NCBI GenBank assembly: GCA_963555755.3
Contig: OY820905.2
Coordinates: forward strand, 736,001 to 800,000
DNA: 64,000 nt
Direction of reading: 5' to 3'
Source: Nitrospirales bacterium
GTDB lineage: Bacteria; Nitrospirota; Nitrospiria; Nitrospirales; UBA8639
In this document: piece after piece, positions 31,700 to 64,000 of the stretch
Numbering within the stretch: the first letter of the stretch is position 1
Layout: each line of letters starts with the position of its first letter
Translations under genes and position numbers: made by a program
The notes under the pieces: model-generated
Told to the model about the DNA's origin: nothing
Database searches by the model: none
The model's input: only the letters and a program-made list of their open reading frames with translations

Positions 31700-33073
31700 G
31701 AGCTATTGTCAAATCTAGTGTCTGAAGCGTTACTCACGCGGCGACCGGGTCCGTGGTTGTCTGTTCGATTCCATCGATAAATTGAATGTCCGCAACGACT
31801 TTGGGCAACTCTCGGAATCCTCGCAAGCGCCTCCATGTTTTCTCTGCGCATTGACCTAACTTGAACATCCTGTGCAATATGCCATCTCGCGTGAGACATC
31901 CCTTTGTGCGGATCGTCCGATGCCGAATCGTTCCAAAGGTCGATTCTCGATGGGATTGGTGGTCCGGAGACTCGGCCAATGGGCAGCCGGAAACGTATAG
32001 AACATCAGGAGCTCCTCTCGATCTTTCTGCAAACAGGCTGTGGCCTTGGGATATTTGAGCTCATAGGTGTTGAGGAATACATCAGCGGCTTGCTCCGCCA
32101 ACCCTTTGGTCTCAGACCGCCAGATGTCTTGTAAGGCCTGCTTGGCTTTGGATTGCACACTTTTGGGCAGCGCATTTAAGACATTCTGTGTCTTGTGGCA
32201 CCAACACCGTTGATGCCGCGTCACCGGGAAGATTTCTTCCAGGGCCGCCCAGAAGCCGAGGGCGCCATCCCCAACAGCCAAGGCGGGCGCGTTCAGCCCG
32301 CGGGCTTTCAGATGCAACAGGACTTCCCGCCAACTTTGGGTGGACTCACGAATCCCGTCTTCCATCGCTAAGAGATGTTTCTCCCCGGAGGCATTCATGC
32401 CGATCACGACCAATGCACCTAAGCGCTGCTCTTCAGCTCGTACGCCACGATAGATCCCATCGACCCAGATATAGACCCACTGGTCGGCATCGAATCGACG
32501 GTGTCGCCAGAGGGTATACTCCTTCCGCCAGATCTGCTTGAGCCGAGCCACCGTACTGGCGGACAGCCCCTTGGCCTCTGGGCCCACGAGGACTTCCAGC
32601 GCCGGTTGCATCTCTCCCGTCGAGATGCCTTTTACGTACAGCCATGGGATCGCCGCTTCTAAGCTAGCCGACTTGCGCACATACGGGGGGACCAGCGCCG
32701 AGTGAAACGTGACCGGTTTGCCCTGGCGACTCCGTACTTTTGGGACTTGTACGGGCACCGGCCCAATGCCCGTCTGAATGTCGCGCGTCGGATGATGGCC
32801 GCTGAGGACAACCCTCGCATGCCCCTGTTCCGTTGACTGGTCTGCATAGGTCGCCAAGAGCTCGGCCACCTCTGCTTTCAGGGCTTGGGCAAGAAGCTTC
32901 TGCGCCCCTGTTCGAATCAACTCCGTCAGCGAATCGGTCCTTCCTCGATCTTCTTCCTCTGATTTGGTACATTCCTGCATCGTGGCGTCTCTCCTTTGTG
33001 GTTGTGGTGGATGTCTCGCAACACCCATTTCAACCCGAGACGCCGCGTGTTTTCAACTGATCCTAGACACTAC
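31700..33073 (-). mobile_element. IS256-family element (transposase 31734-32980, frameshifted)
   Basis: IQTGIGPVPVQVPKVR, YIWVDGIY, RESTQSW, VGDGALGFW, HQRCWCHK, LRTTNPIE; ends approximate. Confidence 0.9.
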
Positions 33074-33159
33074 TTTCAAGTATAACTCAAATACTTGTGA
33101 TATCCCTGATTATATTCTATCCTACATTCCGCACTTGAAAACGTGTATTTTTCTGCCCC

Positions 33160-34809
33160 TCATGTATCGCCTCTTTTTTTTGCGCCAAACTGCGGTTGAG
33201 GGATTTTGAGGAGTTGCAGCACTTGGTGCTGTGGCTCGGACCACTCATCCCAAAAGGTCCTCACCAGCTTGCCGTCACGAAGAATCTCGTACCTGCAGTG
33301 CTGGGCAAAGAGTCGCTGGACTTGTTCCCAGGTCGGGGTCGAGGTGGGTCGTTCCTCGGGGAGGGTTCGCAGGGTTCGAATACCGCTCTTCTCCATCGCA
33401 TGTCTGAGATCGCGCTGAATGAGGGCGGCCACGAGATCGGCGAGGTAGACCACGAGCATGAGGGCCTCGATGCGTTCGTTGTTCTTGAGGAACACCGGCG
33501 CCACCTGGAAGTCGGACTTGAGGCCGCTGAAGCGCTTCTCGATATGGGGCTGATACTTGTACGCCTCGAGGACCGCTTTGGCGGAGAGGGAGGTATTCGT
33601 GACCAGCGGAAAGATCCCATCGATGGCCTTGGCCCGAGCGAGCTGTTCCGGGTCTTGCTGGATCATGAGCTGCGGAATGTGTTTGACGGTGCGATGGTAG
33701 GTTGACGCGGGCGAGGGTTTGCCGCGGGCGGTCTGTGTGAAGGTTTCCTCCACGCGGTGGCTCACGGTCACCGTGAGCCACAGAGCCACCTGATACCTCG
33801 CGATGATCTGGTGGGCCTGCTTGAGTAACGAGCGCTCAGTTCGGCGCCCACGCGCTTTCTTCTCGTTGAGCGCCGCGAGTTTGTGCCGAGCGATCTCCAG
33901 CCGGTCCTTGCGGCGGCTGGCATCGCGATTTCTCTTCTCGGAGGAGCGATACCAATAGAGTCGAAACCCCTCCGCCAGCTGATACGCCTCGCTCGCGACC
34001 GAAAACACGTCAGACATCCCCCGCCTTCGAGTCGAGCGCTGGCGTAGGAGCGGGTCCCAGCGGACGGTCGCCTCGTAGCAGTCGGTGGCAAACGCGTGGG
34101 TTTCGGCCCGGGTCCGAGGGACGATGGTGACAAACCGACCGTGTTCCTGGTCAATGCGCCGCATGTTCGCGGTCGTGCATAATTTGGAGTCGGCGACGTA
34201 GAGGAACCCGGCCCCGCCCACCAAGCGGCGCAACGTCAGCCAATTCTCGATATGCAGGGTATCGTCGGTCTGATGGCCCGCATGGGTCTTGAAGTGAATC
34301 GGCACGGCTCCATCGCGAGCCATCGACAAGTTGTAGAGGAGCTGTTTCAGATCGGGACGATGATCCTTGCTGTGGCCCCGCGTGAGGTGGACCCCTTTGC
34401 GCGATTGCGCCGTGTACGCCCCCGAGAACTTGACGGAGGTGGAATCACTATGGATCTGGGAGACATCAATCGCGAACCGGGCAATGGCCACCAGCGTGAG
34501 GGTGGGCTGCACGGTCGCGCGATCTGCCTGGAACAACCGGTCGAGGGCCCGTCCCAGCCCAGCATCGGTGAGCGGCGCGGCTCCTCGCTCAATAGGGTCG
34601 AACTGCTGGGCCCAGGCTGGGACGCGGTAGAGCGCTGCCGGTTCGATCAGCAGGCTTTTGATGAGGAGCTCAATCGCCGCAGCGTACCGCGCCGAACAAA
34701 GAATGTCCTCCAGGCGGTGGCGCACCCCAAGCGTCGCGAAACAGCGATTGATGAGTGGGAGGGTCGCGATCCGTACCTTCCGATGCTGCAAATCTTTGGC
34801 TTGCATCAC
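33160..34809 (-). CDS. IS1634-family transposase
   Basis: HSDSTS, GHSKDHRPDLKQ, YVADSKL, YKYQPHIEKRF..K..PVFLK..RIEAL. Confidence 0.9.
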   Translation of the reverse strand: MMQAKDLQHRKVRIATLPLINRCFATLGVRHRLEDILCSARYAAAIELLIKSLLIEPAALYRVPAWAQQFDPIERGAAPLTDAGLGRALDRLFQADRATVQPTLTLVAIARFAIDVSQIHSDSTSVKFSGAYTAQSRKGVHLTRGHSKDHRPDLKQLLYNLSMARDGAVPIHFKTHAGHQTDDTLHIENWLTLRRLVGGAGFLYVADSKLCTTANMRRIDQEHGRFVTIVPRTRAETHAFATDCYEATVRWDPLLRQRSTRRRGMSDVFSVASEAYQLAEGFRLYWYRSSEKRNRDASRRKDRLEIARHKLAALNEKKARGRRTERSLLKQAHQIIARYQVALWLTVTVSHRVEETFTQTARGKPSPASTYHRTVKHIPQLMIQQDPEQLARAKAIDGIFPLVTNTSLSAKAVLEAYKYQPHIEKRFSGLKSDFQVAPVFLKNNERIEALMLVVYLADLVAALIQRDLRHAMEKSGIRTLRTLPEERPTSTPTWEQVQRLFAQHCRYEILRDGKLVRTFWDEWSEPQHQVLQLLKIPQPQFGAKKRGDT

Positions 34810-34838
34810 GCCCTATCTTAATGCATAATAGCATTAAG

Positions 34839-35138
34839 ATGTCACGCGCAAAGATGATCCACCTCCGGGCGCCCGGACCCGTTCTGCCCGGGAGTGTGTC
34901 GACAGCAAGGGCGCGATGCGGCAAACAGACGTGCAAGTGTCGGGACGACCCGGCCCACCGACACGGGCCCTATTATCGCTGGACAGGCCTCATCGACGAA
35001 AAGAAGACCACGGTCACGCTCACGCAGGAGGAAGCCAGGGAGTGCGTACGACGGATTAAGAACTTCAAGAAACTGCAGGCGAAGCTGGCGACAGTGAGCA
35101 AGGAGGCGCTTGAAACCGCTCCGTGGACCCGGCGGTAA
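34839..35138 (+). CDS. DUF6788-like small zinc-binding protein inside IS1634
   Basis: PGSVS..RCGKQTCKC..HGPYYRWT..KKTTVTL. Confidence 0.8.
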   Translation: MSRAKMIHLRAPGPVLPGSVSTARARCGKQTCKCRDDPAHRHGPYYRWTGLIDEKKTTVTLTQEEARECVRRIKNFKKLQAKLATVSKEALETAPWTRR

Positions 35139-35516
35139 GAGCTAGGCGCTGGACACCACTGGTGGGTTCCAGGTTAAATGCACGTTCTCAAGTGCGGAAT
35201 GTAGGTTCTATACATCCGGCTTCATTTATTTCGTGAAAATTTTTGTTATTCCTTAAATTAATAAATAATCAGATATCAGCCATCAGCGTTTTGGCTTTGG
35301 TAGCTATTGGAACCTTCGCCACCTGCGTTTATGCGGACGACTTCACTGTCAAGAGTGGCGAGACTGTGTCTACACAGATTCTCGACGGTGATGACAAAGG
35401 CGTGGTAGAAAAAGGCGGCGCTATAAAACCAACCAATAGTGGTGATAATGGCATTAACATAACCGGTAATGATAACACTGCGATCAACAACGGTTCTATC
35501 GAGACGGTGGGAGGCG

Positions 35517-37419
35517 CAGGGCCATTTCATTCTTTTTATAAGCAAGGGATTCCATGAGGTTTTTTGTGCCCTCTTTTTCAGGGCAGGGCCATGCGGATGG
35601 CTAAATGGGGCTTGCCCCAGAGCAGTCTACACGCCTGCGCGATATTGGTGTAGCCTTTCAGGCGTAAGAGACTGATGGCATAGCGTCTCAGACAGGTCAT
35701 GACCATTGGGCCATTGAGACTTCGTATCTGACTCCTGTCTTCATCAAAGGTGACGTCCAACACATAATGCTGCTTATTCTCCACACTCCAATGCTTTCGG
35801 TTTTGCGAGAGGATGGTCTTCGGCCCCGCCTTGTCTTTGGACTGACTCGTGACACCGCAGACCGCTTCGACGGTCGTGAGGCCCTGCTTGAGATGCGTCA
35901 CTTCCCTCTCAATGCAGAAGACTTGCTGGACATGAGGAAAGTTGACATAGGCATTCAGGGAGTCATCGCACCAGATCCTGCGGGTCGTGATCTGCCCATG
36001 GCCTTTCTCGGTGGTGGCATAATCGCACCGGCGTGCTCGCAACGCTAAGGCCTCAATGTCGTGCTTCAAGGTGGGCTGGTTTCCCTTGACGGTGAAGACG
36101 AAGTCGGCGCCGCGTTCGTGCACCAGGTACTCGGCAATCTCTTTCTGGGTGAGGAGCGCATCCGCCGTGATCACCTTCCCTGCGATCTCGAGCGCATCTA
36201 ACAGGGGCCGCACGCAGGGGATCTCATTGGTCTTGGAGTGAACTTTTTTTGGGTGAGGTGGCGCCCGGCTTGATGGGTGACGGCGCTGAGGACGTGGGCT
36301 GTTCGCTTGGGACCTTCGACGTCCCCCGCATGGTCTTCCCATCAATGGCAATGCCCTGATCCTCCCCGCCGAAGGTGTCCAGCCACCGGCCGAGCAGGGT
36401 ATCGACTTCACAGGGGTCGACGGCCGTGATAAAGCGGTAAAGAGTGCTGCGGCTCGGGACGAGGTAGCGCCCCCCTCGCTGAGTACAGCCTAGCCGCTTG
36501 CGCATCGGCTGCGATAACTGCTGGGCCCAGTCCGAGATCGCTTCATAGCCGCGCGCGCCGCACAAGGTGGCACAGAACATGATCGCCGTGAGGGCGCGTC
36601 GGGTGTGCCGTTGCCCTTGCAAATGGCGGGGATCGGTCAGCTGCACCACATACGTAAAGAGGGAGTCCGTCTGTTTTGTATTCAATCTCATCTGAGGCGC
36701 TTCTCCTTTCTGATAGGGCTGATCAAGCATCGGGCGTGCAAGGATCTCTCGGGCTTGGGGATGCAGCCGCACGACTAGGATGCGCTTCGGTCTCTCATGC
36801 TGAACATAACACGTGTTCGACTTGCGAAACCCTCGTGTCAGACCGAGCTCGTGCCACCCGGCGGCCCGATAGCAGGTCCCGGTGAAGCGGGCAGGATCGA
36901 CGAAGGTCTCTAAGAGGAGCAAGGGGTAGCCGTGGTACAGTTGCCAATCGGACGAGATCCGTTTCGCGCAGAGCGACAGGACTTTCGAGGCGAGGTTCTT
37001 TTGCGAACAGCCCGGCAGCATGAGAAACCGGGTGTTGTTGGCCAGTAAATGGAGTCGTTGCCATTGAAAACAGGGGGGCCAGCCGATCCAGTGGTCTCGC
37101 GGTCTCGATTTGAGGGCCGCCGCCGCAAACACCAGCAAGGCCAGCCAGCGATCCTGCACACAGGCGAGATATTGTATCGATTGGCCAATCAGCGGGGCAT
37201 GACCGAGGTAGTGGTGTCTGTCGAGAAGGGTCTTGAAGGCGTCCTTTTCGTCTCGGACAATTGGGCGAACCACGACTTGCCTCAGATCAATGTCCGGCTG
37301 TCCGCTTGGCGATTCGTCTGGCATGCAAAAGAGTATGCCGTAAACGAAAAGAAAAAGCCAGCCTAAATCGATTATTCCTTATTATCTATAAAGTTACACT
37401 TTAATATGAAATAGCCCTG
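35517..37419 (-). mobile_element. ISAs1-family element; transposase has an N-terminal DUF4338 domain and is frameshifted (35578-37324)
   Basis: TIR CAGGGCYATTTCAT; 10-bp TSD GTGGGAGGCG; AIDGKT, KTNEIP, TADALLTQ, VKGNQP, HWSVEN..LDVTFDED. Confidence 0.92.
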
Positions 37420-37438: not shown

Positions 37439-38060
37439 GTATTAACTTATTCGAATCCGACAACAATACCATCAACAACGACGGTTCTATATCGACGACG
37501 GGTGCAAAAGCCCATGGTATTTACCTGACCGGCAACGACCCTAACGGCTCCGATGCCAATACAATTAACAACGACGGTTCTATATCGACGAAGGGTTTAG
37601 ATGCCAATGGTATTGGCTTATCTGAATCCGACAACAATACCATCAACAACGACGGTTCTATATCGACGAAGAATGAATTTTCCCTTGGTATTATATTGGT
37701 CAATTCCCACAACAATACCATCAACAACGACGGTTCTATATCGACGGATAATATAAATGTCACGATGAGAAATAGCGATGGTATTGGCTTATTCATTTCC
37801 AACTTCAATACCATCAACAACGACGGTTCTATATCGACGAAGGGTACAGCTTCCTATGGTATTTACTTATTCGATTCCGACTTCAATACCATCAACAACG
37901 ACGGTTCTATATCGACGAAGGGTATAGATGCCGTGGGTATTGGCTTAGACGAATCCAACAACAATACCATCAACAACAACGGTTCTATATTGCCGAAGGG
38001 TAAAGGTGCCTTTGGTATTGACTTACTCGATTCCCACAACAATACCATCAACAACGACGG
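37439..38060 (+). repeat. About 60-bp coding tandem repeats of the autotransporter A passenger
   Basis: Recurring AATACCATCAACAACGACGGTTCTATATCGACG, about 10 units. Confidence 0.9.
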
Positions 38061-39407
38061 AGATATCTTCGTTAGTGGCGCTGGAATCTTTGCGCTTCGG
38101 GATAGGGGATCCGGTGACAATAATACCCTGAACCTGTATTCCCGTTCACGAATCATTGGCCGAATTGATTTTGGCGATGGAGTAGAGACGGTCAATTTCC
38201 ATTTCAAGAAAGCGGGTTTTTCTTCCACGTTGAGTTTTGAGAATACGGAGTCTATCAACCTGCATGACGATAATATGGTGAATGTGGGAGGCCTGACAGG
38301 AGTTTATTCGGTGGTTGATCCCACCGGTCAGTCAGTGAACGGAGCTGTTCTTGGTTCGATCACAAAAGATATCCATGGAATCCTGACCCGCCGTACGAGT
38401 CGGATGTCGAACACGAATCCCTCGCAACTGGCTTCGACCCGTGTGGAACCGGGAATGATGTCCTCTTCCCAAAAATCACAAGTCTGGGCGAGCGGTTTCG
38501 GCGCCCACCGTTCACGCGATGAAGATGGCCGTGTTCTCGCTTATGACCACGTTTATTACGGCGGCGTCGCCGGTTATGAAACGGCAACCCGTCAAGCGAG
38601 TATCGGCTTCATGGCGGGCTACGCTCAATCTGATGTAAGAACAGATTTAACCTCGATCAACACCGATAGCGAAAGTTATTTTGTCGGCGCTTATGGTCAG
38701 AAAAGATTCGCGAGCTTCAACCTGGACGCCTCTTTGCTCGCCGGTTACGAGCGCTATGACAACGACCGTATTGTGGTCGATAACCTGAATAAGTTTGAAA
38801 CTGCCGAGGCGGCTTATGACTCTTTTTTTCTAAGTCCGTCAGTCACTTTGAGTAGCGAAATCAGGGTATTCGACAAGATAGCGCTTCGTCCTTCAGTAAC
38901 CGGGATTTACAGCGTCGCATGGTATGACGATTACACCGAATCGGGCACAACCCGATCTAACCTGTCCATCGACGACCGATTCTCGCATGCCCTGATCGGA
39001 AAACTGCAAATTGCGGCGGCGTATGTGTTCAGCAATGGCAGCGAAATAGGGATTAGAGGAGGCGGCAGGTATCGCTATACGATCAATGATGATGTTGACG
39101 CCACATTAGCGGGAACGTCTTTTCGATATGCCGCGGCCGGAGACGACACTTACTTTGCAGCCATAGCGGGCGCCAATGCGCGCGTTGCGTTAATGGACAG
39201 TATCAACCTGACCGCCAATGCGGAATATGCATTCGACGATGGCATTGAAACCACCCTGTCAGGCCAACTCGTCCTTGAATTTATTGGCTCTTTAGCAGAA
39301 TCTTCGGCCTTGAATTTATTGGCTCTTCAGCAGAATCTGTGGGTGACTTGGTTCAAATAGAATAGAATAGGAATAGGGGTCAAATCTTTGAATTGAAATA
39401 GAATAGG

Positions 39408-39531
39408 GTAGAGTAGAACACTGGTGCTCACCTGGAGCTACTCTCGAACGCTTCGACGCACGCGTCTACAACGGACCACAGCAGTCAGCAATTCCCAGCG
39501 TCCCCTCATCAATCCGTGCATACAGTTTTCC
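39408..39531 (-). ncRNA. 3' end (half of DV plus DVI) of group II intron O; empty-site copy
   Basis: Near-identical to 60872-60975 joined directly to 62970-62989; ends ..CTACTCTAC. Confidence 0.85.
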
Positions 39532-41392
39532 CAAGCCGTTCACTTAATCTGTTGACACAAACCAGCAAACAGACATAAACAGCGCTTGTTTGCTGGCTTT
39601 CTTGTTTTGGATCATGCAGAAAAAATCTTCCGCAACTTCTACGCTGAAGCACCCTCGGATACCGCTCGAGTACGGTGGCTTCCAGATCAACCACTGCAAG
39701 TCTCCGGTCTGCTCGAACTACGGCGTTCCGCCAGAACACACATCGGTGCGTGGAAAAAATAGCTACACTCTGGATTCACGCAACCAAGGCATTTCATCCT
39801 GTATCTGCACGTCCTGCGGCGAAGGATTCCCTCTCAAGAGCAACCTCGGCATCGCAGAAGAAGTCGAGCGCATGTCGGCCTACCTGTCGCCTCGTGAGGT
39901 GGCGTTCTGCCGTAACGATGCCTGTACCAACCATACCGGTCAGGTGCCCGTAGGTACCGCCGGGGCATATGCCTCGTTCGGCAAGACCGCGATTGGCAGC
40001 CCCCGCTGGCGCTGTAGCGTCTGCGGTAAGACGTTCTCACAGAACACCAAGGCCACCGCCCGGCAGCGGGAACATCACAAGAACAAGACCATTTTCAAAC
40101 TGCTGGTCAACAAGCTGCCCGTGCGCCGAATCATCGAAGTCGCCGACATCCACCCCAAGACCTTCTACCACCGCCTCGACTTCCTCCATCGCCAGTGCCA
40201 ATCATTTGCCGCCCACCGCGAGCACGCCCTATCCACCCTCCCCATTCGGCGACTGTCCCTCGGCGTGGACCGGCAGGACTACCTTGTGAACTGGATGGTT
40301 CGCAAGGACAAGCGCAACATTCAGCTATCGGCCATTGCATCAGTGGACAACGAACACGGTTACGGCTTCGGTGTCCACCTTCACTTCGACCCTTCTCTGG
40401 ACAGCGAAGCTGTCCAAGCCGAAGTCGAGAAGAGCGGCGACCTTGGCATGCCCTATCCGCATCGTCGCGTTGCACGTCTGTGGCTCAATGCAGACCATGA
40501 GCGAGCCAGTGCCAAATCCCTACGCACTTCGCGGCGCAAACCCGGACTGCCAACGCAGATCGATGAAGCCTATGCCGCAGCATTGATGCGTGACGATATC
40601 GAAAGCCCCGATGCGCCGTCGCCCGTAGAACGACTTCCTGAATACGGGATGCAAACCCATGGCGAGTACACCATGTCTGGGCATTTTTTCTTCCTCAAAC
40701 GCCTGCTGGGCAATGTCCAAAAGTGGCGCTTCTTTATCGACCAAGACCCTGGACTGCGAGCCGCGTGCCTATCGGCGTTCCACGACGAGATCCGAGGCCG
40801 CACGGCGGAGGCCTTCTCTGTTCGCATCACCAAAGATCTGACGGTGGACGAAACGCGTCAAAAATACAACGAAGCGACGATGCTGTTCGTGCACGCAGAG
40901 CTCGCGCACCCAAAGATGAAGCCGCAGGAGGTCAAGTTGCTGCTGATCAAAGAGCGTCTGGCCTGTATGACGCCGCACGGGAAGTGGCAGGATCGGTGGC
41001 TTGACCATCCTTTCCCGACCATGAGCGAGCCAGAGAAGACAGTGGCCTCCCTCACCAATCTGGGCGACTACGACGAAGACCACAAAGCTTGGCTCTACAA
41101 CAAAGCGAGCGTGCATGGTGTCGATTCGTTCTTCAACCAAGTGCGTCGACGGCTCTCCCTGCTGGAGCGTCCGATCCATTCCAAATCCAACAATGGTCGG
41201 ATATGGAACGGATATTCTCCATATAACCCGGGTAATGTTGCAAAAGTACTCGACATCATGCGCACGGTGCATAACTACATCCTGACCGGCAAGGATGGCA
41301 AGACGCCAGCTGTGCGACTTGGATTGGCCCAAGCGCCGCTGGACTACGAAGCCATTATTTATTTTGCATCAACAGATTAAGTGAACGGCTTG
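39532..41392 (+). mobile_element. Large IS1-superfamily-like insertion element
   Basis: 24-bp perfect TIR CAAGCCGTTCACTTAATCTGTTGA; 9-bp flanks CAGTTTTCC / CAGTTCTCC. Confidence 0.88.
39614..41380 (+). CDS. Putative transposase of about 590 aa (two Cys/His zinc modules, HTH, DDE-like core)
   Basis: HCKSPVC..CTSC, CRNDAC.H..RWRCSVCGKTF, VDRQ, FIDQD, C-terminal HNY..KTPAVRLGL as in IS1-like proteins; stop lies in the TIR. Confidence 0.75.
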   Translation: MQKKSSATSTLKHPRIPLEYGGFQINHCKSPVCSNYGVPPEHTSVRGKNSYTLDSRNQGISSCICTSCGEGFPLKSNLGIAEEVERMSAYLSPREVAFCRNDACTNHTGQVPVGTAGAYASFGKTAIGSPRWRCSVCGKTFSQNTKATARQREHHKNKTIFKLLVNKLPVRRIIEVADIHPKTFYHRLDFLHRQCQSFAAHREHALSTLPIRRLSLGVDRQDYLVNWMVRKDKRNIQLSAIASVDNEHGYGFGVHLHFDPSLDSEAVQAEVEKSGDLGMPYPHRRVARLWLNADHERASAKSLRTSRRKPGLPTQIDEAYAAALMRDDIESPDAPSPVERLPEYGMQTHGEYTMSGHFFFLKRLLGNVQKWRFFIDQDPGLRAACLSAFHDEIRGRTAEAFSVRITKDLTVDETRQKYNEATMLFVHAELAHPKMKPQEVKLLLIKERLACMTPHGKWQDRWLDHPFPTMSEPEKTVASLTNLGDYDEDHKAWLYNKASVHGVDSFFNQVRRRLSLLERPIHSKSNNGRIWNGYSPYNPGNVAKVLDIMRTVHNYILTGKDGKTPAVRLGLAQAPLDYEAIIYFASTD

Positions 41393-41512
41393 CAGTTCTC
41401 CCGCATACGGCTCTCCGGTCAGTAGGTTCCTATGGAGTGGACGAAACGAATATGGGCATCATTCAGGCTCGTGAACCCATGATCCGCAAAGAAGGCGGTC
41501 GGCCACCGTTCA
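41393..41512 (-). pseudogene. Remnant of a different group II intron (IEP C-terminus plus 5' half of DV)
   Basis: ERWPTAFFADHGFTSL..* followed by GGAGAGCCGTATGCGGGAGAACTG. Confidence 0.75.
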
Positions 41513-42378
41513 TGTGAGATTTCCTCGTGTTGTTTACAGTTTAAAGAAAAATGTTCGTAACTTTTCGTACGGCGTCATGTTGTCGATTCCCGCATGTGGT
41601 TTGACCGTATTATAGAAATTGACGAATCGGGCAAGGCCGAGTTTCCGGTCTTGTCGTGAAGGAAAAATCGTGGCGGCATGCCACATTTCCAAAAGCGTTT
41701 TGATCACACGCTCCGCCTTGCCAGTGGTCTGAGGGCGCCGGACCCGGGTAAAGTTCTGCCCCGTGCCGTTAGCCTTACACCTGGCCACGAACGCATGATC
41801 CGGGGTGCCTTTATATTCTGTGCCATTATCTGAATAGGCACATTCGATCGTGTAGGGGCATTCCTCGAGCACTTGCTCCAGGAACGTCGCCGCAGACGTT
41901 TGCGTTTTATCGGGCAGGATCGCCGCGTACAGCTCTCGTGAGAAATCGTCAATGGCCACGAACAGATGCTCCCGCGGGAGGGTTTGCTTCTCGCCTGCGA
42001 GCAACGGTAAACGTTTGGTGTCAAAGTGGAGCATCTCCCCGGGATAGCTTTTGTTGTAGCGCCGCGCGGCAAGTTTTAGCTTGCGCTCAAGAGCCTGCTC
42101 CACCTTGGCCAGGCGTTTCATCCCGTACTGTGCCTGCAAAAAGCGCTTGTTGGTGGATGGTCGAGGCGCAAATTCCTGTTTTCGCGCTCGGTCGATCACC
42201 TTGTAAATGGTCGGCCGAGAGACGCGGAATTGCTGCGCGAGCGCTACAACCGTCCACTGCCTCGTGCCATACAGTTGCCAGATCTCTTGTCGATCAAGCG
42301 GCGTTAACCGGGTTCTTTTGTGTATTGTCATGTCTACATCCTCGCAAAAAGATGTAAACAACGCTAGAAAAATTCACA
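41513..42378 (-). mobile_element. IS481-family element (transposase 41534-42331)
   Basis: TGT..ACA ends with imperfect IR; HKRTRLTP, PGEMLHFDTK, VAIDDFSR, SDNGTEY, PQTTGKAER. Confidence 0.9.
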
Positions 42379-55981: not shown

Positions 55982-56544
55982 AGGGTATACTCCTTCCGCC
56001 AGATCTGCTTGAGCCGAGCCACCGTACTGGCGGACAGCCCCTTGGCCTCTGGGCCCACGAGGACTTCCAGCGCCGGTTGCATCTCTCCCGTCGAGATGCC
56101 TTGTAAGTACAGCCATGGGATCGCCGCTTCCAAGCTAGCCGACTTGCGCACATACGGGGGGACCAGCGCCGAGTGAAACGTGACCGGTTTGCCCTGGCGA
56201 CTCCGTACTTTTGGGACTTGTACGGGCACCGGCCCAATGCCCGTCTGAATGTCGCGCGTCGGCTGATGGCCGCTGAGGACAACCCTCGCATGCCCCTGTT
56301 CCGTTGACTGGTCTGCATAGGTCGCCAAGAGCTCGGCCACCTCCGCTTTCAGGGCTTGGGCAAGAAGCTTCTGCGCCCCTGTTCGAATCAACTCCGTCAG
56401 CGAATCGGTCCTTCCTCGATCTTCTTCCTCTGATTTGGTACATTCCTGCATCGTGGCGTCTCTCCTTTGTGGTTGTGGTGGATGTCTCGCAACACCCATT
56501 TCAACCCGAGACGCCGCGTGTTTTCAACTGATCCTAGACACTAC
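55982..56544 (-). mobile_element. 5' part of IS256 (start of the segmental duplication)
   Basis: Near-identical to 32511-33073. Confidence 0.9.
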
Positions 56545-56591
56545 TTTCAAGTATAACTCAAATACTTGTGATATCCCTGATTATATTCTAT

Positions 56592-58676
56592 CCTACATTC
56601 CGCACTTGAAAACGTGTATTTTTCTGCCCCTCATGTATCGCCTCTTTTTTTTGCGCCACACTGCGGTTGAGGGATTTTGAGGAGTTGCAGCACTTGGTGC
56701 TGTGGCTCGGACCACTCATCCCAAAAGGTCCTCACCACCTTGCCGTCACGAAGAATCTCGTACCTGCAGTGCTGGGCAAAGAGTCGCTGGACTTGTTCCC
56801 AGGTCGGGGTCGAGGTGGGTCGTTCCTCGGGGAGGGTTCGCAGGGTTCGAATACCGCTCTTCTCCATCGCATGTCTGAGATCGCGCTGAATGAGGGCGGC
56901 CACGAGATCGGCGAGGTAGACCACGAGCATGAGGGCCTCGATGCGTTCGTTGTTCTTGAGGAACACCGGCGCCACCTGGAAGTCGGACTTGAGGCCGCTG
57001 AAGCGCTTCTCGATATGGGGCTGATACTTGTACGCCTCGAGGACCGCTTTGGCGGAGAGGGAGGTATTCGTGACCAGCGGAAAGATCCCATCGATGGCCT
57101 TGGCCCGAGCGAGCTGTTCCGGGTCTTGCTGGATCATGAGCTGCGGAATGTGTTTGACGGTGCGATGGTAGGTTGACGCGGGCGAGGGTTTGCCGCGGGC
57201 GGTCTGTGTGAAGGTTTCCTCCACGCGGTGGCTCACGGTCACCGTGAGCCACAGAGCCACCTGATACCTCGCGATGATCTGGTGGGCCTGCTTGAGTAAC
57301 GAGCGCTCGGTTCGGCGCCCACGCGCTTTCTTCTCGTTGAGCGCCGCGAGTTTGTGCCGAGCGATCTCCAGCCGGTCCTTGCGGCGGCTGGCATCGCGCT
57401 TTCGCTTCTCGGAGGAGCGATACCAATAGAGTCGAAACCCCTCCGCCAGCTGATACGCCTCGCTCGCGACCGAAAACACGTCAGACATCCCCCGCCTTCG
57501 AGTCGAGCGCTGGCGTAGGAGCGGGTCCCAGCGGACGGTCGCCTCGTAGCAGTCGGTGGCAAACGCGTGGGTTTCGGCCCGGGTCCGAGGGACGATGGTG
57601 ACAAACCGACCGTGTTCCTGGTCAATGCGCCGCATGTTGGCCGTCGTGCATAATTTGGAGTCGGCGACGTAGAGGAACCCGGCCCCGCCCACCAAGCGGC
57701 GCAACGTCAGCCAATTCTCGATATGCAGGGTATCGTCCGTCTGATGGCCCGCATGGGTCTTGAAGTGAATCGGCACGGCTCCATCGCGAGCCATCGACAA
57801 GTGGTAGCGGAGCTGTTTCAGATCGGGACGATGATCCTTGCTGTGGCCCCGCGTGAGGTGGACCCCTTTGCGCGATTGCGCCGCGTACGCCCCCGAGAAC
57901 TTGACGGAGGTGGAATCACTATGGATCTGGGAGACATCAATCGCGAACCGGTCAATGGCCGCCAGCGTGAGGGTGGGCTGCAACGTTGCGCGATCAGCCT
58001 GGAATAACCTGTCGAGGGCCCGTCCCAGCCCAGCATCGGTGAGCGGCGCGGCTCCTCGCTCAATCGGGTCGAACTGCTGGGCCCAGGCTGGGACGCGGTA
58101 GAGCGCTGCCGGTTCGATCAGCAGGCTTTTGATGAGGAGCTCAATCGCCGCAGCGTACCGCGCCGAACGAAGAATGTCCTCCAGGCGGTGGCGCACCCCA
58201 AGCGTCGCGAAACAGCGATTGATGAGTGGGAGGGTCGCGATCCGTACCTTCCGATGCTGCAAATCTTTGGCTTGCATCACGCCCTATCTTAATGCATAAT
58301 AGCATTAAGATGTCACGCGTAAAGATGATCCACCTCAGATCGCCCGGACCCGTTCTGCCCGGGAGTGTGTCGACCGCAAGGGCGCGATGCGGCAAACAGA
58401 CGTGCAAGTGTCGGGACGACCCGGCCCACCGACACGGGCCCTATTATCGCTGGACAGGCCTCATCGACGAAAAGAAGACCACGGTCACGCTCACGCAGGA
58501 GGAAGCCAGGGAGTGCGTACGACGGATTAAGAACTTCAAGAAACTGCAGGCGAAGCTGGCGACAGTGAGCAAGGAGGCGCTTGAAACCGCTCCGTGGACC
58601 CGGCGGTAAGAGCTAGGCGCTGGACACCACTGGTGGGTTCCAGGTTAAATGCACGTTCTCAAGTGCGGAATGTAGG
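56592..58676 (-). mobile_element. IS1634 copy 2 (transposase 56631-58280; DUF6788 gene 58310-58609 on +)
   Basis: Same TIRs, TTCTAT TSD and flanks as 33121-35205. Confidence 0.93.
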
Positions 58677-58713
58677 TTCTATACATCCGGCTTCATTTAT
58701 TTCGTGAAAATTT

Positions 58714-60823
58714 TTGTTATTCCTTAAATTAATAAATAATCAGGTATCAGCCATCAGCGTTTTGGCTTTGCTTGCTATTGGAACCTTCGCCACCTGCGTT
58801 TATGCGGGCGGCTTCACTGTCAAGAGCGGCGAGACTGTGATGATTACACAGGAACTCGACGGTGATGACAAAGGCGTGGTAGAAAAAGGCGGCGCTATAA
58901 AACCAACCAATAGTGGTGATAATGGCATTAACATAACCGGTAATGATAACACTGCGATCAACAACGGTTCTATCGAGACGGTGGGAGGCGCAGGGCCATG
59001 GTATTCACTTATTCGAATCCGACAACAACACCATCAACAACGACGGTTCTATAGAGACGATGGGTCACAGGGCCTTTGGCATTTACTTAGACGAATCCCT
59101 CAACAATGCCATCAACAACAACGGTTCTATAGAGACGGAGGTACGAGGTGCTTCTGGCATTTACTTAGACAAATCCCTCAACAATACCGTCAACAACAAC
59201 GGTTCTATAGAGACGATGGGAGACTTTGCCTCTGGCATTTCCTTATCCGGTTCCACCACCAATACCATCAACAACAACGGTTCTATAAAGACGGTGGGAA
59301 AAGACTCCTATGGCATTTCCTTATCAGCTTTCACCACTAATACCGTCAACAACAACGGTTCTATAGAGACGATGGGAGAAGGTGCCCATGGCATTTTATT
59401 ATTCGCTTCCGACACCAATAATACCATCAACAACAACGGTTCTATAAAGACGATGGGAGAAGGTGCCCATGGCATTTTCTTATTTTTTTCCGATGCCAAT
59501 ACCATCAATAACGACGGAGATATCTTTGTTACTGGCGTTGACAGCTTTGCTGTTTTGGATGATGGAAACAAGCAGAATAAAAACAATACCCTAAACCTGT
59601 TTTCCCGTTCGCGAATCATTGGCCGAATTGATTTTGGCGATGGAGTAGATACGGTCAATTTCCATTTCAAGAAAGCGGGTTTTTCTTCCACGTTGAGTTT
59701 TGAGAATACGGAGTCTATCAACCTGCATGACGACAATATGGTGAATGTGGGAGGCCTGACAGGAGTTTATTCGGTGGTTGATCCCACCGGTCAGTCAGTG
59801 AACGGAGCTGTTCTTGGTTCGATCACAAAAGATATCCATGGAATCCTGACCCGCCGTACGAGTCGGATGTCGAACACGAATCCCTCGCAACTGGCTTCGA
59901 CCCGTGTGGAACCGGGAATGATGTCCTCTTCCCAAAAATCACAAGTCTGGGCGAGCGGTTTCGGCGCCCACCGTTCACGCGATGAAGATGGCCGTGTTCT
60001 CGCTTATGACCACGTTTATTACGGCGGCGTCGCCGGTTATGAAACGGCAACCCGTCAAGCGAGTATCGGCTTCATGGCGGGCTACGCTCAATCTGATGTA
60101 AGAACAGATTTAACCTCGATCAACACCGATAGCGAAAGTTATTTTGTCGGCGCTTATGGTCAGAAAAGATTCGCGAGCTTCAACCTGGACGCCTCTTTGC
60201 TCGCCGGTTACGAGCGCTATGACAACGACCGTATTGTGGTCGATAACCTGAATAAGTTTGAAACTGCCGAGGCGGCTTATGACTCTTTTTTTCTAAGTCC
60301 GTCAGTCACTTTGAGTAGCGAAATCAGGGTATTCGACAAGATAGCGCTTCGTCCTTCAGTAACCGGGATTTACAGCGTCGCATGGTATGACGATTACACC
60401 GAATCGGGCACAACCCGATCTAACCTGTCCATCGACGACCGATTCTCGCATGCCCTGATCGGAAAACTGCAAATTGCGGCGGCGTATGTGTTCAGCAATG
60501 GCAGCGAAATAGGGATTAGAGGAGGCGGCAGGTATCGCTATACGATCAATGATGATGTTGACACCACATTAGCGGGAACGTCTTTTCGATATGCCGCGGC
60601 CGGAGACGACACTTACTTTGCAGCCATAGCGGGCGCCAATGCGCGCGTTGCGTTAATGGACAGTATCAACCTGACCGCCAATGCGGAATATGCATTCGAC
60701 GATGGCATTGAAACCACCCTGTCAGGCCAACTCGTCCTTGAATTTATTGGCTCTTTAGCAGAATCTTCGGCCTTGAATTTATTGGCTCTTCAGCAGAATC
60801 TGTGGGTGACTTGGTTCAAATAG
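58714..60823 (+). pseudogene. Repeat-rich autotransporter copy B, +1 frameshift at about 58991-58997
   Basis: Barrel nearly identical to copy A; repeats NNTINNNGSIETMG. Confidence 0.88.
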
Positions 60824-60975
60824 AATAGAATAGGAATAGGGGTCAAATCTTTGAATTGAAATAGAAATAGGGTAGAGTAGAACACTGGTGCTCACCTGGA
60901 GCTACTCTCGAACGCTTCGACGCACGCGTCTACAACGGACCACAGCAGTCAGCCATTCCCAGCGTCCCCTCATCA

Positions 60976-62969
60976 GTAGGGTCGAGGACTGGCGCGCCAA
61001 CGGTAGGGTTCGGTGGCTCCTCCACCCCTTTCGGAATGGGCCTCAGTCCGACTCCCCTGGTCACGGTTCCAGTCCCCGCCACCTCAAACCCGGCGTGCTG
61101 ATTTCCAGCACCGGGCTTTCCTGGATGCTTCACCTCAAGGGTTATGTGACCTATCAGCCTGGAAGGACTTTCATGCCGACCCGTTGTACCGCACTCGGTA
61201 ATCTCCATATAAGCCAAGTACCGTGTAGAGCCAAACCTTACTCCACCTCTTCCAGCCAAAACCTCGACGGTGGCGCACTCGCATCATGTGCCGCCGGACC
61301 TTCCGCTCCACCCAATCCTTCACGTAGGATAAACACCGACTCGCATGCCCAATCCGGAAGTAGTTCACCCAGCCCCGTACGATCGGATTGATCATGGCGA
61401 TCATCCGTCCCACCGGCTGGGATTGCCCGCGTCGGAACACTTCCTTGAGCTTCCGCAGCAACGCGGTGCGCCGCTTCACCTTCGGTATGTACTGCGGGCG
61501 CCACACTCCACGCCGCGACCGCACACGCCGAAAGTCAAAGCCCAGAAAGCCGAAGCTGCCTCCCTGACTCAGGTCCACGATTCGGCTCTTCTCCTCATTC
61601 ACCTGAAGGTCTAATTGGGCCAACGCCTCTCGCAGCTTCCGCTCCGCAACCTGCGCCAGTTGTGCGTGGCGGCGATAGCCATCCACTAACACGACGAGGT
61701 CATCCGCAAACCGGACATACTCGAGATACGTATACTGGCCCTGCCGGGTTGTCTCCTTCAGCTGCTCCAGCCTCTCATCCACTTCCGTGAGATAGAGGTT
61801 GGCCAGCAGCGGGGAAATCACACCCCCTTGAGGCACCCCACGCGGGCCGGACGCCTTGACGATGAGTTTCACCAGCCGCAGGATCGCGGGATCCTGGATG
61901 CGTCGGGCCACCTTCGCCAGCAGCCGGTCATGCCGCACCGTGTCGAAGAAGGCCGCCAGATCCACATCAATCACTCGCGTCTTGTTCTGCACCATCGCCT
62001 GAGCCACCCGGCCAATCGCCTGGTGGGCTGTCCGTTTCGGTCGATACCCATACGACCCATCACGAAAATCCGCCTCAAAGATCGGTTCCAGCAGGAGCTT
62101 GAGCGCTCCCTGTACCACGCGGTCCCGAATCGCGGGTATCCCTAAGACGCGGACTCGTCCACCGCCTTTCGAAATCTCCACGTGCCGGTTCCGCATCGGT
62201 CGGTAGGTCTGCGTGACCAGTTCGTCCCGTAGTCGTGCAAGAAAGGGCTCCACCCCCGTGGCCTCGATGCCAGCAAACGTCACCCCATCAATGCCGGGGG
62301 CTCCGTTGTTTTTCTTGGCCATCGAATAGGCCGCGCGTAGCGTCGCCTCTTTGCACACGTGGACGTACAGGCCCCACACCCGCCATCGCTTCTCAGCCTT
62401 CGCCTTGACGTAGAGCCGCTGTCGCAGGTCTTGCAGTGTAATGGACGCCGTTGTCATCTCGTCCCTGCCTCCCATGTTGATCACAGCCTACAGCCAGTAG
62501 GGCTCCTTTGCTCCACAGGCATGACCCTGCTTCCTCGCTCCTACGAGCCCCTCCGCCACCCTCTCGTCTTCGGCTCACTTCCCAGAGAGCTGGTTATAGA
62601 GCCGATCTTCCTCCAGGGATTTCTCCCTGGGACGAGGAGGGCTTCTCCAGTTGCGTCGTCTGTCCTTGCTCCCGTGCTGTCGCTCTCACCCCGCCGGAGT
62701 GGCCAGGCGTCTCAGCCTTGGTTCGCCTGTCCATGCCGTCTTCGTCCTACGGACAGGGACTCGACCTCCGAGGTTTCATACTTTCGAGGCTACCTCTGCG
62801 TTCACTTTCGTTACGGCCCGGGAACTCGCTCACCATCCTCTACGATGGCTTTGTCGATGGGCTTCAGCGTCTCGGTTTCTCTCCACGCTGCCATCCAAGC
62901 TACAGGGCTCAGGCTCTTACCCTGGTGGGCTTGCTTCCCACTGAACAGTCTCGCCTTACCTGGACACAC
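60976..62969 (-). mobile_element. Complete group II intron inserted at the DV/DVI junction of intron O
   Basis: Starts GTGTG and ends CGACCCTAC; DV AAGCCCGGTGCTGGAAATCAGCACGCCGGGTTT; boundaries confirmed by the empty site at 39511/39512. Confidence 0.92.
61171..62457 (-). CDS. ltrA: Group II intron reverse transcriptase/maturase, no endonuclease domain
   Basis: APGIDG, LGIPAIRDRVVQ, PQGGVISPLLAN, RFADD, FLGF, NPIVRGWVNYF. Confidence 0.93.
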   Translation of the reverse strand: MTTASITLQDLRQRLYVKAKAEKRWRVWGLYVHVCKEATLRAAYSMAKKNNGAPGIDGVTFAGIEATGVEPFLARLRDELVTQTYRPMRNRHVEISKGGGRVRVLGIPAIRDRVVQGALKLLLEPIFEADFRDGSYGYRPKRTAHQAIGRVAQAMVQNKTRVIDVDLAAFFDTVRHDRLLAKVARRIQDPAILRLVKLIVKASGPRGVPQGGVISPLLANLYLTEVDERLEQLKETTRQGQYTYLEYVRFADDLVVLVDGYRRHAQLAQVAERKLREALAQLDLQVNEEKSRIVDLSQGGSFGFLGFDFRRVRSRRGVWRPQYIPKVKRRTALLRKLKEVFRRGQSQPVGRMIAMINPIVRGWVNYFRIGHASRCLSYVKDWVERKVRRHMMRVRHRRGFGWKRWSKVWLYTVLGLYGDYRVRYNGSA

Positions 62970-63542
62970 ATCCGTGCGTACAGTTTTCCCGTACACGGCT
63001 TTCCGATGTTCTTCGTCAGAACGCATGCGCCCGTTTCCAGCCAGCTATCGTGGGAAGCTTGAACAAGCCGTATCGAGCATAGAGCATGGCCGTGGGAAAC
63101 TGCGCATACCCTGCCGCCCGGCTTTTCACCTTGTGCCGTTTGCGGAGGTGCGCGCGCAGTCGCTCTTCCACATGCCATTTCACTCGACCCAAGCCCTTGG
63201 AGCTCTTGCGGTAGTGGAAATAGCCCGCCCACCCGCGCACGTACTGGTTGAGCGTCGCCACCACATCAGGGAGCGGAATCGGGGTCCCACCACGAGCCGT
63301 CATCTGTGTCACTCGTGCTTTCGCCCGCTGGATGGATCGGAGGGACGGCTCCACGTGCGGGTAGACTTTCCCGCTCGTGCGTCCCGTCCGGAGACCAAAG
63401 GAAAACCCGAGAAAGTCAAACCGTTCCTGCCTGGCGTTGACTTCCCTGGTTTTCTCCTCATTGAGGCTCAGCCCCAATCCCTCCAGCAAGTGGTGGAGGA
63501 CCGTCATTGACGGAGCCACCTCCCCCGCACAAAGCACCACCA

Positions 63543-64000
63543 GTCGAGTCGCCCCGAGGAACCACCCCTCGAGGCGCTCACAGAACCGGACGTGAACGTC
63601 TCCGCTCATCCGGCTCTTCTTATCTAGCCTGTCCATACACCAACCGCCAGTGAGCAAACAGATTGGGCTGCCGACACGCAATGCGTCGCAACCACTGATC
63701 GGCTCGCCGTTTGTGGCCTCGCAGCCGCTTGAACTTGCGAGTGGCCCACAGCACAAGTTTGCGATCGATGTGCCGGAGGGACCGGTACAACGCCGATTGG
63801 TAGAAGGCACTGTAATAGGTCACCCACCCGCGTATCTTCGCATTGAACATCCGCGCCAGATCGTCGAGCGCTTTATCGCTCCGCAGATGGAGCTGCCAGC
63901 TCCGCACGACCTGGCGGATCGCCTTCCCCGCCTTATTACTGATGGCCGGACTGAAGTTGATGAAGTATTTCCCCCACCGGTTCTTCGACCGCCGTGGGCG
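63543..64000 (-). mobile_element. 3' end of a third group II intron (class D-like IEP, stop at 63620) inserted in the RT of intron O
   Basis: RPRRSKNRWG..NAKIRGWVTYY..PNLFAHW; DV GAGCCGGATGAGCGGAGACGTTCACGTCCGGTTC; ends GCGACTCGAC. Confidence 0.88.

Follow-up and report, generated by a model that had tools for sequence, protein, structure and literature searches.

We consider it highly probable that a single group II intron of this Nitrospirales bacterium, here called O, carries two unrelated group II introns at conserved spots, likely as the result of independent retrohoming, that the one at domain V (DV) belongs to a DV-targeting lineage of variety g2, and that a DNA transposon, T, prefers the same hairpin. 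The window, that is, the whole 64,000-nucleotide stretch of DNA that was analysed, corresponds to G000:C1:736001-800000, and positions above 64000 continue its numbering into the genome. Positions, the copy census, recurrence in relatives and EBS/IBS complementarity were read directly from the DNA.

The whole nest (G000:C1:796872-802706) lies inside a 4.6-Mb contig, with every component on the minus strand. The host, the class F-like intron O, occupies 66706-60872 and runs beyond the window end. Its 5' part, with domains I-IV (65412-66706 in the extended numbering), starts with GCATG after TTGACC and holds the first portion of the RT ORF, from 66216. Then comes the class D-like intron D (1869 nt, 65411..63543, of which 63543..64000 is in the window), which has a 414-aa ORF at 64864-63620 and a match to RF00029 at 63543-63618. 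The middle part of O (62970..63542) contains the C-terminal half of the RT/maturase ORF, with its stop at 63018-63016, and 32 of the 33 bases of DV (63001-62970). It is followed by intron B, of variety g2 (1994 nt, 62969..60976), with a 428-aa ORF that includes FADD (62457-61171), and by the 3' part of O (60872..60975), made of the last DV base and domain VI (DVI) and ending in CTCTAC. B is flanked by ...GCACGGAT upstream and TGATGAGGGG downstream. An earlier note on this DNA had put the 1994-nt intron exactly at the end of DV; the intron is indeed at DV, with the insertion point one base before the DV end, within the strand that pairs with the catalytic triad. The predicted EBS1 (62754-62749) and EBS2 (62781-62777) of B are complementary to the 3' strand of the host DV.

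The three-intron nest that the note proposed is real, and its junctions were confirmed against an insert-free O elsewhere in the genome. The YADD codons predicted for the 5' exon of the third intron were found past 64000, where the exon of D ends in R-Y-A-D-D codons plus one C, and the 3' exon reads TG GTG GTG CTT TGT (LVVLC). The sequence beyond this intron is the 5' part of O, as anticipated, and removal of both inserts yields an intron of 1972 nt with an open 443-codon ORF. This insert-removed O has counterparts elsewhere in the genome: an O free of inserts at G000:C1:230290-228319, from which it shows 48 differences, and an O that carries B alone at C1:240690-244655, from which it shows 25. 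Because the genome holds these two forms, both junctions are fixed to the base. Empty O, O with B, and O with B and D thus coexist as three states in one genome.

O is intergenic, its 3' part lying 48 nt beyond the stop of an opposite-strand autotransporter ORF. The TTGACC that precedes it is part of a motif with 130 occurrences in the contig. Introns of the O family (G000:C1:802706 and other O and O2 copies) appear to start with GCATG or GTTCG, not GTGYG, and O and O2 copies insert after TGACC within an abundant short repeat. We also observed a segmental duplication in the window (32511-35525 with 55982-58999, and 37557-39511 with 59026-60975), which holds an IS1634 element and paralogous autotransporter genes, with an O 3' end after each; the autotransporter copy at 58714-60823 looks frameshifted near its start. 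Two short elements, with matches to G000:C1:804105-804283 and 805728-806035, are highly repeated genome-wide: the first is palindromic and has well over 100 matches, and the second is repeatedly split by introns at the same positions.

Regarding the identity of the three introns, the ORFs of D and O (414 and 443 aa) are open and alignable with that of B. RF02003 on B and RF00029 on D scored above gathering; RF00029 reached 42.8 bits on the empty O, above its cut-off, and 36.7 bits on the B of the window, below it. The ends of B and D conform to 5' GUGYG and 3' AY, and the GCATG start of O was placed from shared copy boundaries and EBS1 complementarity. In a quick tree built without g4 and some other references, the O protein was sister to Ni.ha.I1 (g3), to which it is 47% identical, with a support of 90 and a long branch, so that O may be assigned to class F in the wide sense. 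The D protein is 54-55% identical to proteins of S. meliloti plasmid introns, which we take to be of the RmInt1 type of class D; as the tree had no named class D reference, D would be class D-like by similarity only. The B protein scored 356.9 bits on TIGR04416 (cut-off 300) and in the quick tree joined, at an SH-aLRT of 97, an intron protein from a B. thuringiensis plasmid (L165, 49%). B has FADD in RT5, no En domain and a size of ~2.0 kb, which are features of variety g2 of class F. FADD has been described as the mark of this variety, whose members lack an endonuclease domain and measure 1970-2006 nt (PMC3552965), and B shares all three traits, its 1994 nt falling within that range. The g2 loci given in Table S2 of that work are non-coding, transposase or hypothetical genes, and DV is unmentioned in the accessible part of the source.

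Intron D is a known case. Its three copies in this genome are identical, and each sits after RYADD+1 in a different host RT gene; among its relatives (12 loci in 11 other genomes), two of the five with a readable start are at the same position. The RYADD+1 site has been described for M.a.I5, UA.I3, P.l.I2 and B.th.I3 of B. thuringiensis ATCC 35646 (PMC2504315), and D shares with them the insertion base, the size of ~1.8 kb and the lack of an endonuclease domain. Compared by site, size and domain content, we found no essential difference between D and these RYADD-homing introns as they appear in the accessible text, so the view that homing into the RT ORFs of other introns is a known habit agrees with a published specificity (PMC2504315). 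A class C-like intron in a dispersed repeat (G000:C1:3054800-3060600) also carries D at RYADD+1, together with T in its DV.

Twelve of the 13 full B copies of this genome are at the DV site, ten of them directly behind the DV 3' strand and two stacked behind a third. The latter form three tandem copies in one ORF-less host (G000:C1:2159911-2166640), with mutual differences at 6-16 positions. The remaining copy (G000:C1:1562261-1560268) is in frame in a coding gene, which we presume to be fhs-like; its EBS1 matches perfectly and its EBS2 poorly. This gene-borne copy is the best place to look for B splicing. O', an ORF-less 746-nt derivative of O, carries B in seven of seven copies, and there is no B-free O' in the assembly. 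Tandem integration at an occupied site has been published for another intron (PMC12584367).

All 11 DV junctions of B show at most one mismatch over the EBS1 and EBS2 of the copy concerned, and the three B copies whose EBS1 is a variant are found at CGGTT sites. Uninvaded targets were taken from 22 examined out of 35 Rfam DV hits; among the 17 that could be parsed, 16 have at least two mismatches to the main B variant, the exception being the empty O. Counting against this picture, the O at C1:228319 carries no B in spite of its perfect match, and the class C-like and O2 DVs that are free of B would have only one mismatch to the minor B variant. The EBS2 register, as well as the two DV descriptors used below for the relatives of B and the ends of T, was set after the data had been seen. 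B variants do not follow host variants, and several B copies are near-identical, with 0-2 differences among them.

Homing to DV is a trait of the B lineage, a widespread g2 group in which DV is the commonest target seen. A scan of 7 of the 64 parts of the collection gave 598 confirmed relatives, of which we analysed the best 80; the 5' exon was readable in 57 of them and not in 23. The DV descriptor was passed by 27 of the 57 (20 genomes, at least eight phyla), compared with 0.33% of random positions; a stricter first descriptor had missed obvious DVs and was loosened, so this fraction rests on a rule tuned on these data, and a register-shift test is partly circular, given that the positives were chosen at shift 0. 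The other 30 of 57 fail the descriptor, although by eye two of them resemble DV and four are located within other introns, in domain I or III. DV is therefore one target among several in g2. By eye, the relatives L015, L016, L022 and L034 appear to have switched to a new target, domain I or III in other group II introns. Out of seven plasmid loci of named strains, hand-picked from 96 records, three show the DV site by eye (Cupriavidus, Paraburkholderia and Caballeronia).

EBS1 tracks the target: across 48 loci, it paired with its own 5' exon at 5.65 of 6 positions and at 3.51 when exchanged across target classes, and among non-DV loci the values were 5.56 and 3.41, with pairing scored as the best of three offsets and G-U counted. 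In the quick tree, from which seven short rows were omitted and in which two genome rows and the plasmid rows were labelled as DV by eye, DV rows occupy the first branches of the clade of B and recur throughout it, with non-DV rows in several subclades. This suggests that DV may be the ancestral target of the sampled clade. As for the hosts in other genomes, an RT was found upstream in 5 of 24 DV hosts, and a domain I Rfam match within ~1.1 kb upstream in 12 of the 18 loci that were scanned (L020 and 17 of the 19 that lacked an RT); the closeness of these matches is consistent with ORF-less hosts.

The same hairpin is hit by T, a transposon of 1861 bp with terminal inverted repeats of ~30 bp, found on the plus strand of the window at 39532..41392, at a DV loop. 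Its ORF (39614-41380, plus strand) encodes 588 aa with an IS1/IS1595-like zinc-binding region. To the left (39408..39531, minus strand) lie an O-type DV loop, the DV 3' arm and DVI, where no B occupies its site; to the right (41393..41513, minus strand), another intron, class C-like according to its DV/DVI reading, contributes the 5' arm and loop of its DV. Because the two flanks derive from different hosts, the locus is rearranged. The segment at 39408-39531 had been offered as an empty-site control, and it does show an unoccupied B site; it contains only the DV loop, 3' arm and DVI, with the 5' arm replaced by a transposon end. The earlier reading overlooked this transposon junction, as it did DV homing as a trait of the B lineage.

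Three other T copies are present in the genome (G000:C1:1024325-1026939, 1251115-1252975 and 3058590-3060450). All eight ends of the four copies adjoin DV halves, which belong to three host types, and two of the four DVs hit by T also carry B or a B fragment. In two copies the loop region is duplicated exactly, over 9 bp, on either side, and in the other two the duplication differs by one base; a duplication of 11 bp was considered and dropped in favour of 9 bp, as nearly all ends share a terminal G. We also noticed that the T termini begin with sequence resembling the DV 5' arm, and that an intron at C1:1022265-1028918, related to the copy at C1:3054800-3060600, carries T and B in its DV.

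In 53 metagenome loci with T relatives, 58 ends provided enough flank for comparison with hand-made DV-half patterns. Among the close relatives of T, 37 of the 58 ends matched DV halves (29 of 43 loci; background 2.2%), and 21 of the 58 had no pattern match; the patterns probably gave a few false positives and overlooked a few true DV halves. The exact 9-bp duplication was present in 6 of 19 two-ended loci, and a group II RT match in 10 of the 53. Sites outside DV share a similar GC-rich symmetric core, so DV targeting by T is a preference and not an exclusivity. Four distant relatives (42-49% identity) had no clear terminal repeat in their flanks and no DV by eye, and a search of 300 other genomes of the class found no T.

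The protein family of T is large (976 clusters at 1e-10). The 588-aa protein itself fell below every family cut-off and had no Pfam match: NF033558 gave 31.8 bits, compared with a cut-off of 100, over an N-terminal stretch only. Weak IS1-type hits were obtained for 68 of 78 family members, and a PDB sequence search with the T protein returned almost only zinc-finger matches among the best 60 of 197. In the family alignment D219 is invariant and D376 nearly so, which makes them candidate DDE residues. T resembles insertion sequences of the IS1/IS1595 type in its terminal inverted repeats, 9-bp duplication and IS1-like zinc-binding region, and differs from known ones in its preferred target, the DV loop of group II introns, and in a protein below the family cut-offs. 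Insertion sequences that target hairpin repeats (REP) are known (PMC1525189).

Retrohoming of group II introns through EBS pairing is established. From the arrangement described above we infer retrohoming, the order of splicing and the target recognition by T, as follows. D would have retrohomed to RYADD+1 and B to the DV 3' strand, independently, each by pairing of its EBS with the target. In RNA, the sites that B binds lie in the host DV hairpin, as its 3' strand; splicing of B would require this hairpin to be unzipped, and the folded host DV and the spliceable state of B should exclude each other. O would regain its DV-DVI junction only after B has spliced. Splicing of D would be needed for O to make its own RT; otherwise, an intact O elsewhere could supply it. 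T would cut at the DV loop with a 9-bp duplication, probably through protein recognition of the inverted arms.

The note had also argued that the core of O cannot form before the inner intron has been removed, which is too strong, since 32 of the 33 DV bases are contiguous upstream of B. The host DV hairpin is computed to be the same when completed with the first base of B (-12.5 kcal/mol both ways), with the terminal bases unpaired in either case. Rather than disrupting the core, B places itself between DV on one side and DVI with the 3' splice site on the other. Accordingly, the argument for inside-out splicing from loss of the core fails as it was put, yet branching and exon ligation probably still follow an inside-out order. 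The EBS duplexes are computed at -6.6 and -1.1 kcal/mol, weaker than the DV hairpin, so splicing from the DV context may be poor.

In RNA data, the joint that skips D was present in all four runs (the version in X8 carries 29 other letters and is probably from an insert-free O copy). The joint that skips B occurred only in runs X1 and X2, with a variant read as another paralogue, and was absent from the low-depth contigs of runs X8 and X10. We rejected both joints as evidence of splicing, reading them as the insert-free O copy and another paralogue, respectively. Two junctions of B, B/DVI/flank and O'-DV/B, are bridged by RNA-library contigs of a different study; none of the listed contigs bridges the D junctions with O or the whole nest. 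Inside-out splicing has some indirect support: O' copies that are identical in sequence, with exact ends, occur at different sites, and their B copies differ at 15, 16 and 1 positions. O' thus probably moved first, on its own, and B invaded it later. The source of these O' copies would be either spliced RNA or a donor that was then empty.

One could argue that B homes to DV and splices poorly from it, in which case there would be no inside-out splicing in vivo and occupied O and O' would be dead landing pads. The greater computed stability of the DV hairpin over the EBS duplexes, the RNA contigs without a spliced joint and the intergenic position of the nest, where no host gene would select for splicing, all favour this possibility. 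On the other hand, near-identical B copies have spread and 12 of 13 are in DV, so B must excise from some such site or from the gene-borne copy, and identical ORF-less O' copies stand at different sites with exact intron ends and full occupancy (7/7). We regard this explanation as a serious one, though on balance rather unlikely. That host and B move as one composite, by DNA duplication or by retrohoming of the unspliced form, so that recurrence is mere copying, would fit the occupancy of every ORF-less O' (7/7) and the segmental duplication in the window around the nest. Nevertheless, within pairs of identical O' the B copies show differences at 15 and 16 positions, one B variant is common to different host types, and relatives occupy this same base in host classes that are unrelated. 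This scenario, which most loci already contradict, has in our view very little chance of being correct.

It could also be proposed that ORF-less hosts use the RT/maturase of B in cis, a symbiosis instead of parasitism. The low number of DV hosts with an RT upstream in other genomes (5/24) and the domain I matches within ~1.1 kb upstream (12/18 loci) point in that direction, yet EBS complementarity alone explains the occupancy in this genome, with the main EBS2 matching O' perfectly, and an intact O ORF is available in trans; we therefore give this proposal a small probability. Finally, a mis-assembly of repeats might be suspected because all three elements are multicopy and no single RNA contig extends across the whole nest. 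This we judge extremely improbable: the contig that contains the nest measures 4.6 Mb, an open ORF and an intact DV are recovered to the base across both junctions, the B junctions are also bridged by contigs of another study, and the same sites recur in unrelated genomes. Compared with these alternatives, independent retrohoming of D and B into O is the reading that we prefer.

Nested group II introns have been reported before, with up to five introns in Methanosarcina acetivorans (PMC4424553). As in the present nest, those have multiple introns without coding exons, built by site-specific homing into other introns; the accessible part of that report does not mention DV as a target, and a title cited in it refers to homing into intron ORFs. 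In the psbF twintron of Euglena gracilis (PMC8393795) a group II intron also lies inside domain V of another. As presented there, it is a single chloroplast case, whereas B is from a bacterial RT-encoding lineage that uses one DV base in many host classes. TeI3-in-TeI4 of T. elongatus (PMC2882425) and Tr.e.I7/I8 of Trichodesmium (PMC4649490) are also bacterial twintrons, whose inner introns entered dispersed hosts independently, and sequential splicing was demonstrated for the latter (PMC4649490). According to the text accessible for these sources, the inner introns occupy positions in domain IV (between two ATGs) and in domain I, outside the catalytic hairpin. Searching titles and the beginnings of abstracts, a coverage that leaves out key older papers and the intron databases, we found no bacterial DV-homing lineage and no insertion sequence that targets DV. 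The nest and the RYADD site are hence of known kinds, while DV homing by g2 and the DV preference of T appear to be new and, by comparison of sequences, well supported.

Taken further, we lean somewhat towards seeing DV as a shared landing site of hyperparasites, visited by a cross-phylum g2 lineage through RNA pairing with a folding switch, and by T, of an unclassified IS1-like subfamily, which would recognise the inverted arms and insert at the loop and so may kill the intron. A lineage aimed at the group II intron element that is conserved above all others would find a target in nearly every genome that harbours an intron. DV insertions would hide host introns from pipelines that need an intact DV-DVI or discard multi-intron loci; twintrons are missed or excluded by pipelines, according to PMC8919778 and PMC4028801. 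The arrangement would be a natural test of ribozyme splicing in which the 5' exon is the active-site hairpin of another ribozyme, and since the same arrangement occurs in cultured Burkholderiaceae, such as Paraburkholderia phymatum STM815 (pBPHY02) and Caballeronia SBC2, it could be assayed. A DNA transposon that prefers DV loops, for its part, would represent a site-preferring transposase aimed at the catalytic core of a retroelement.
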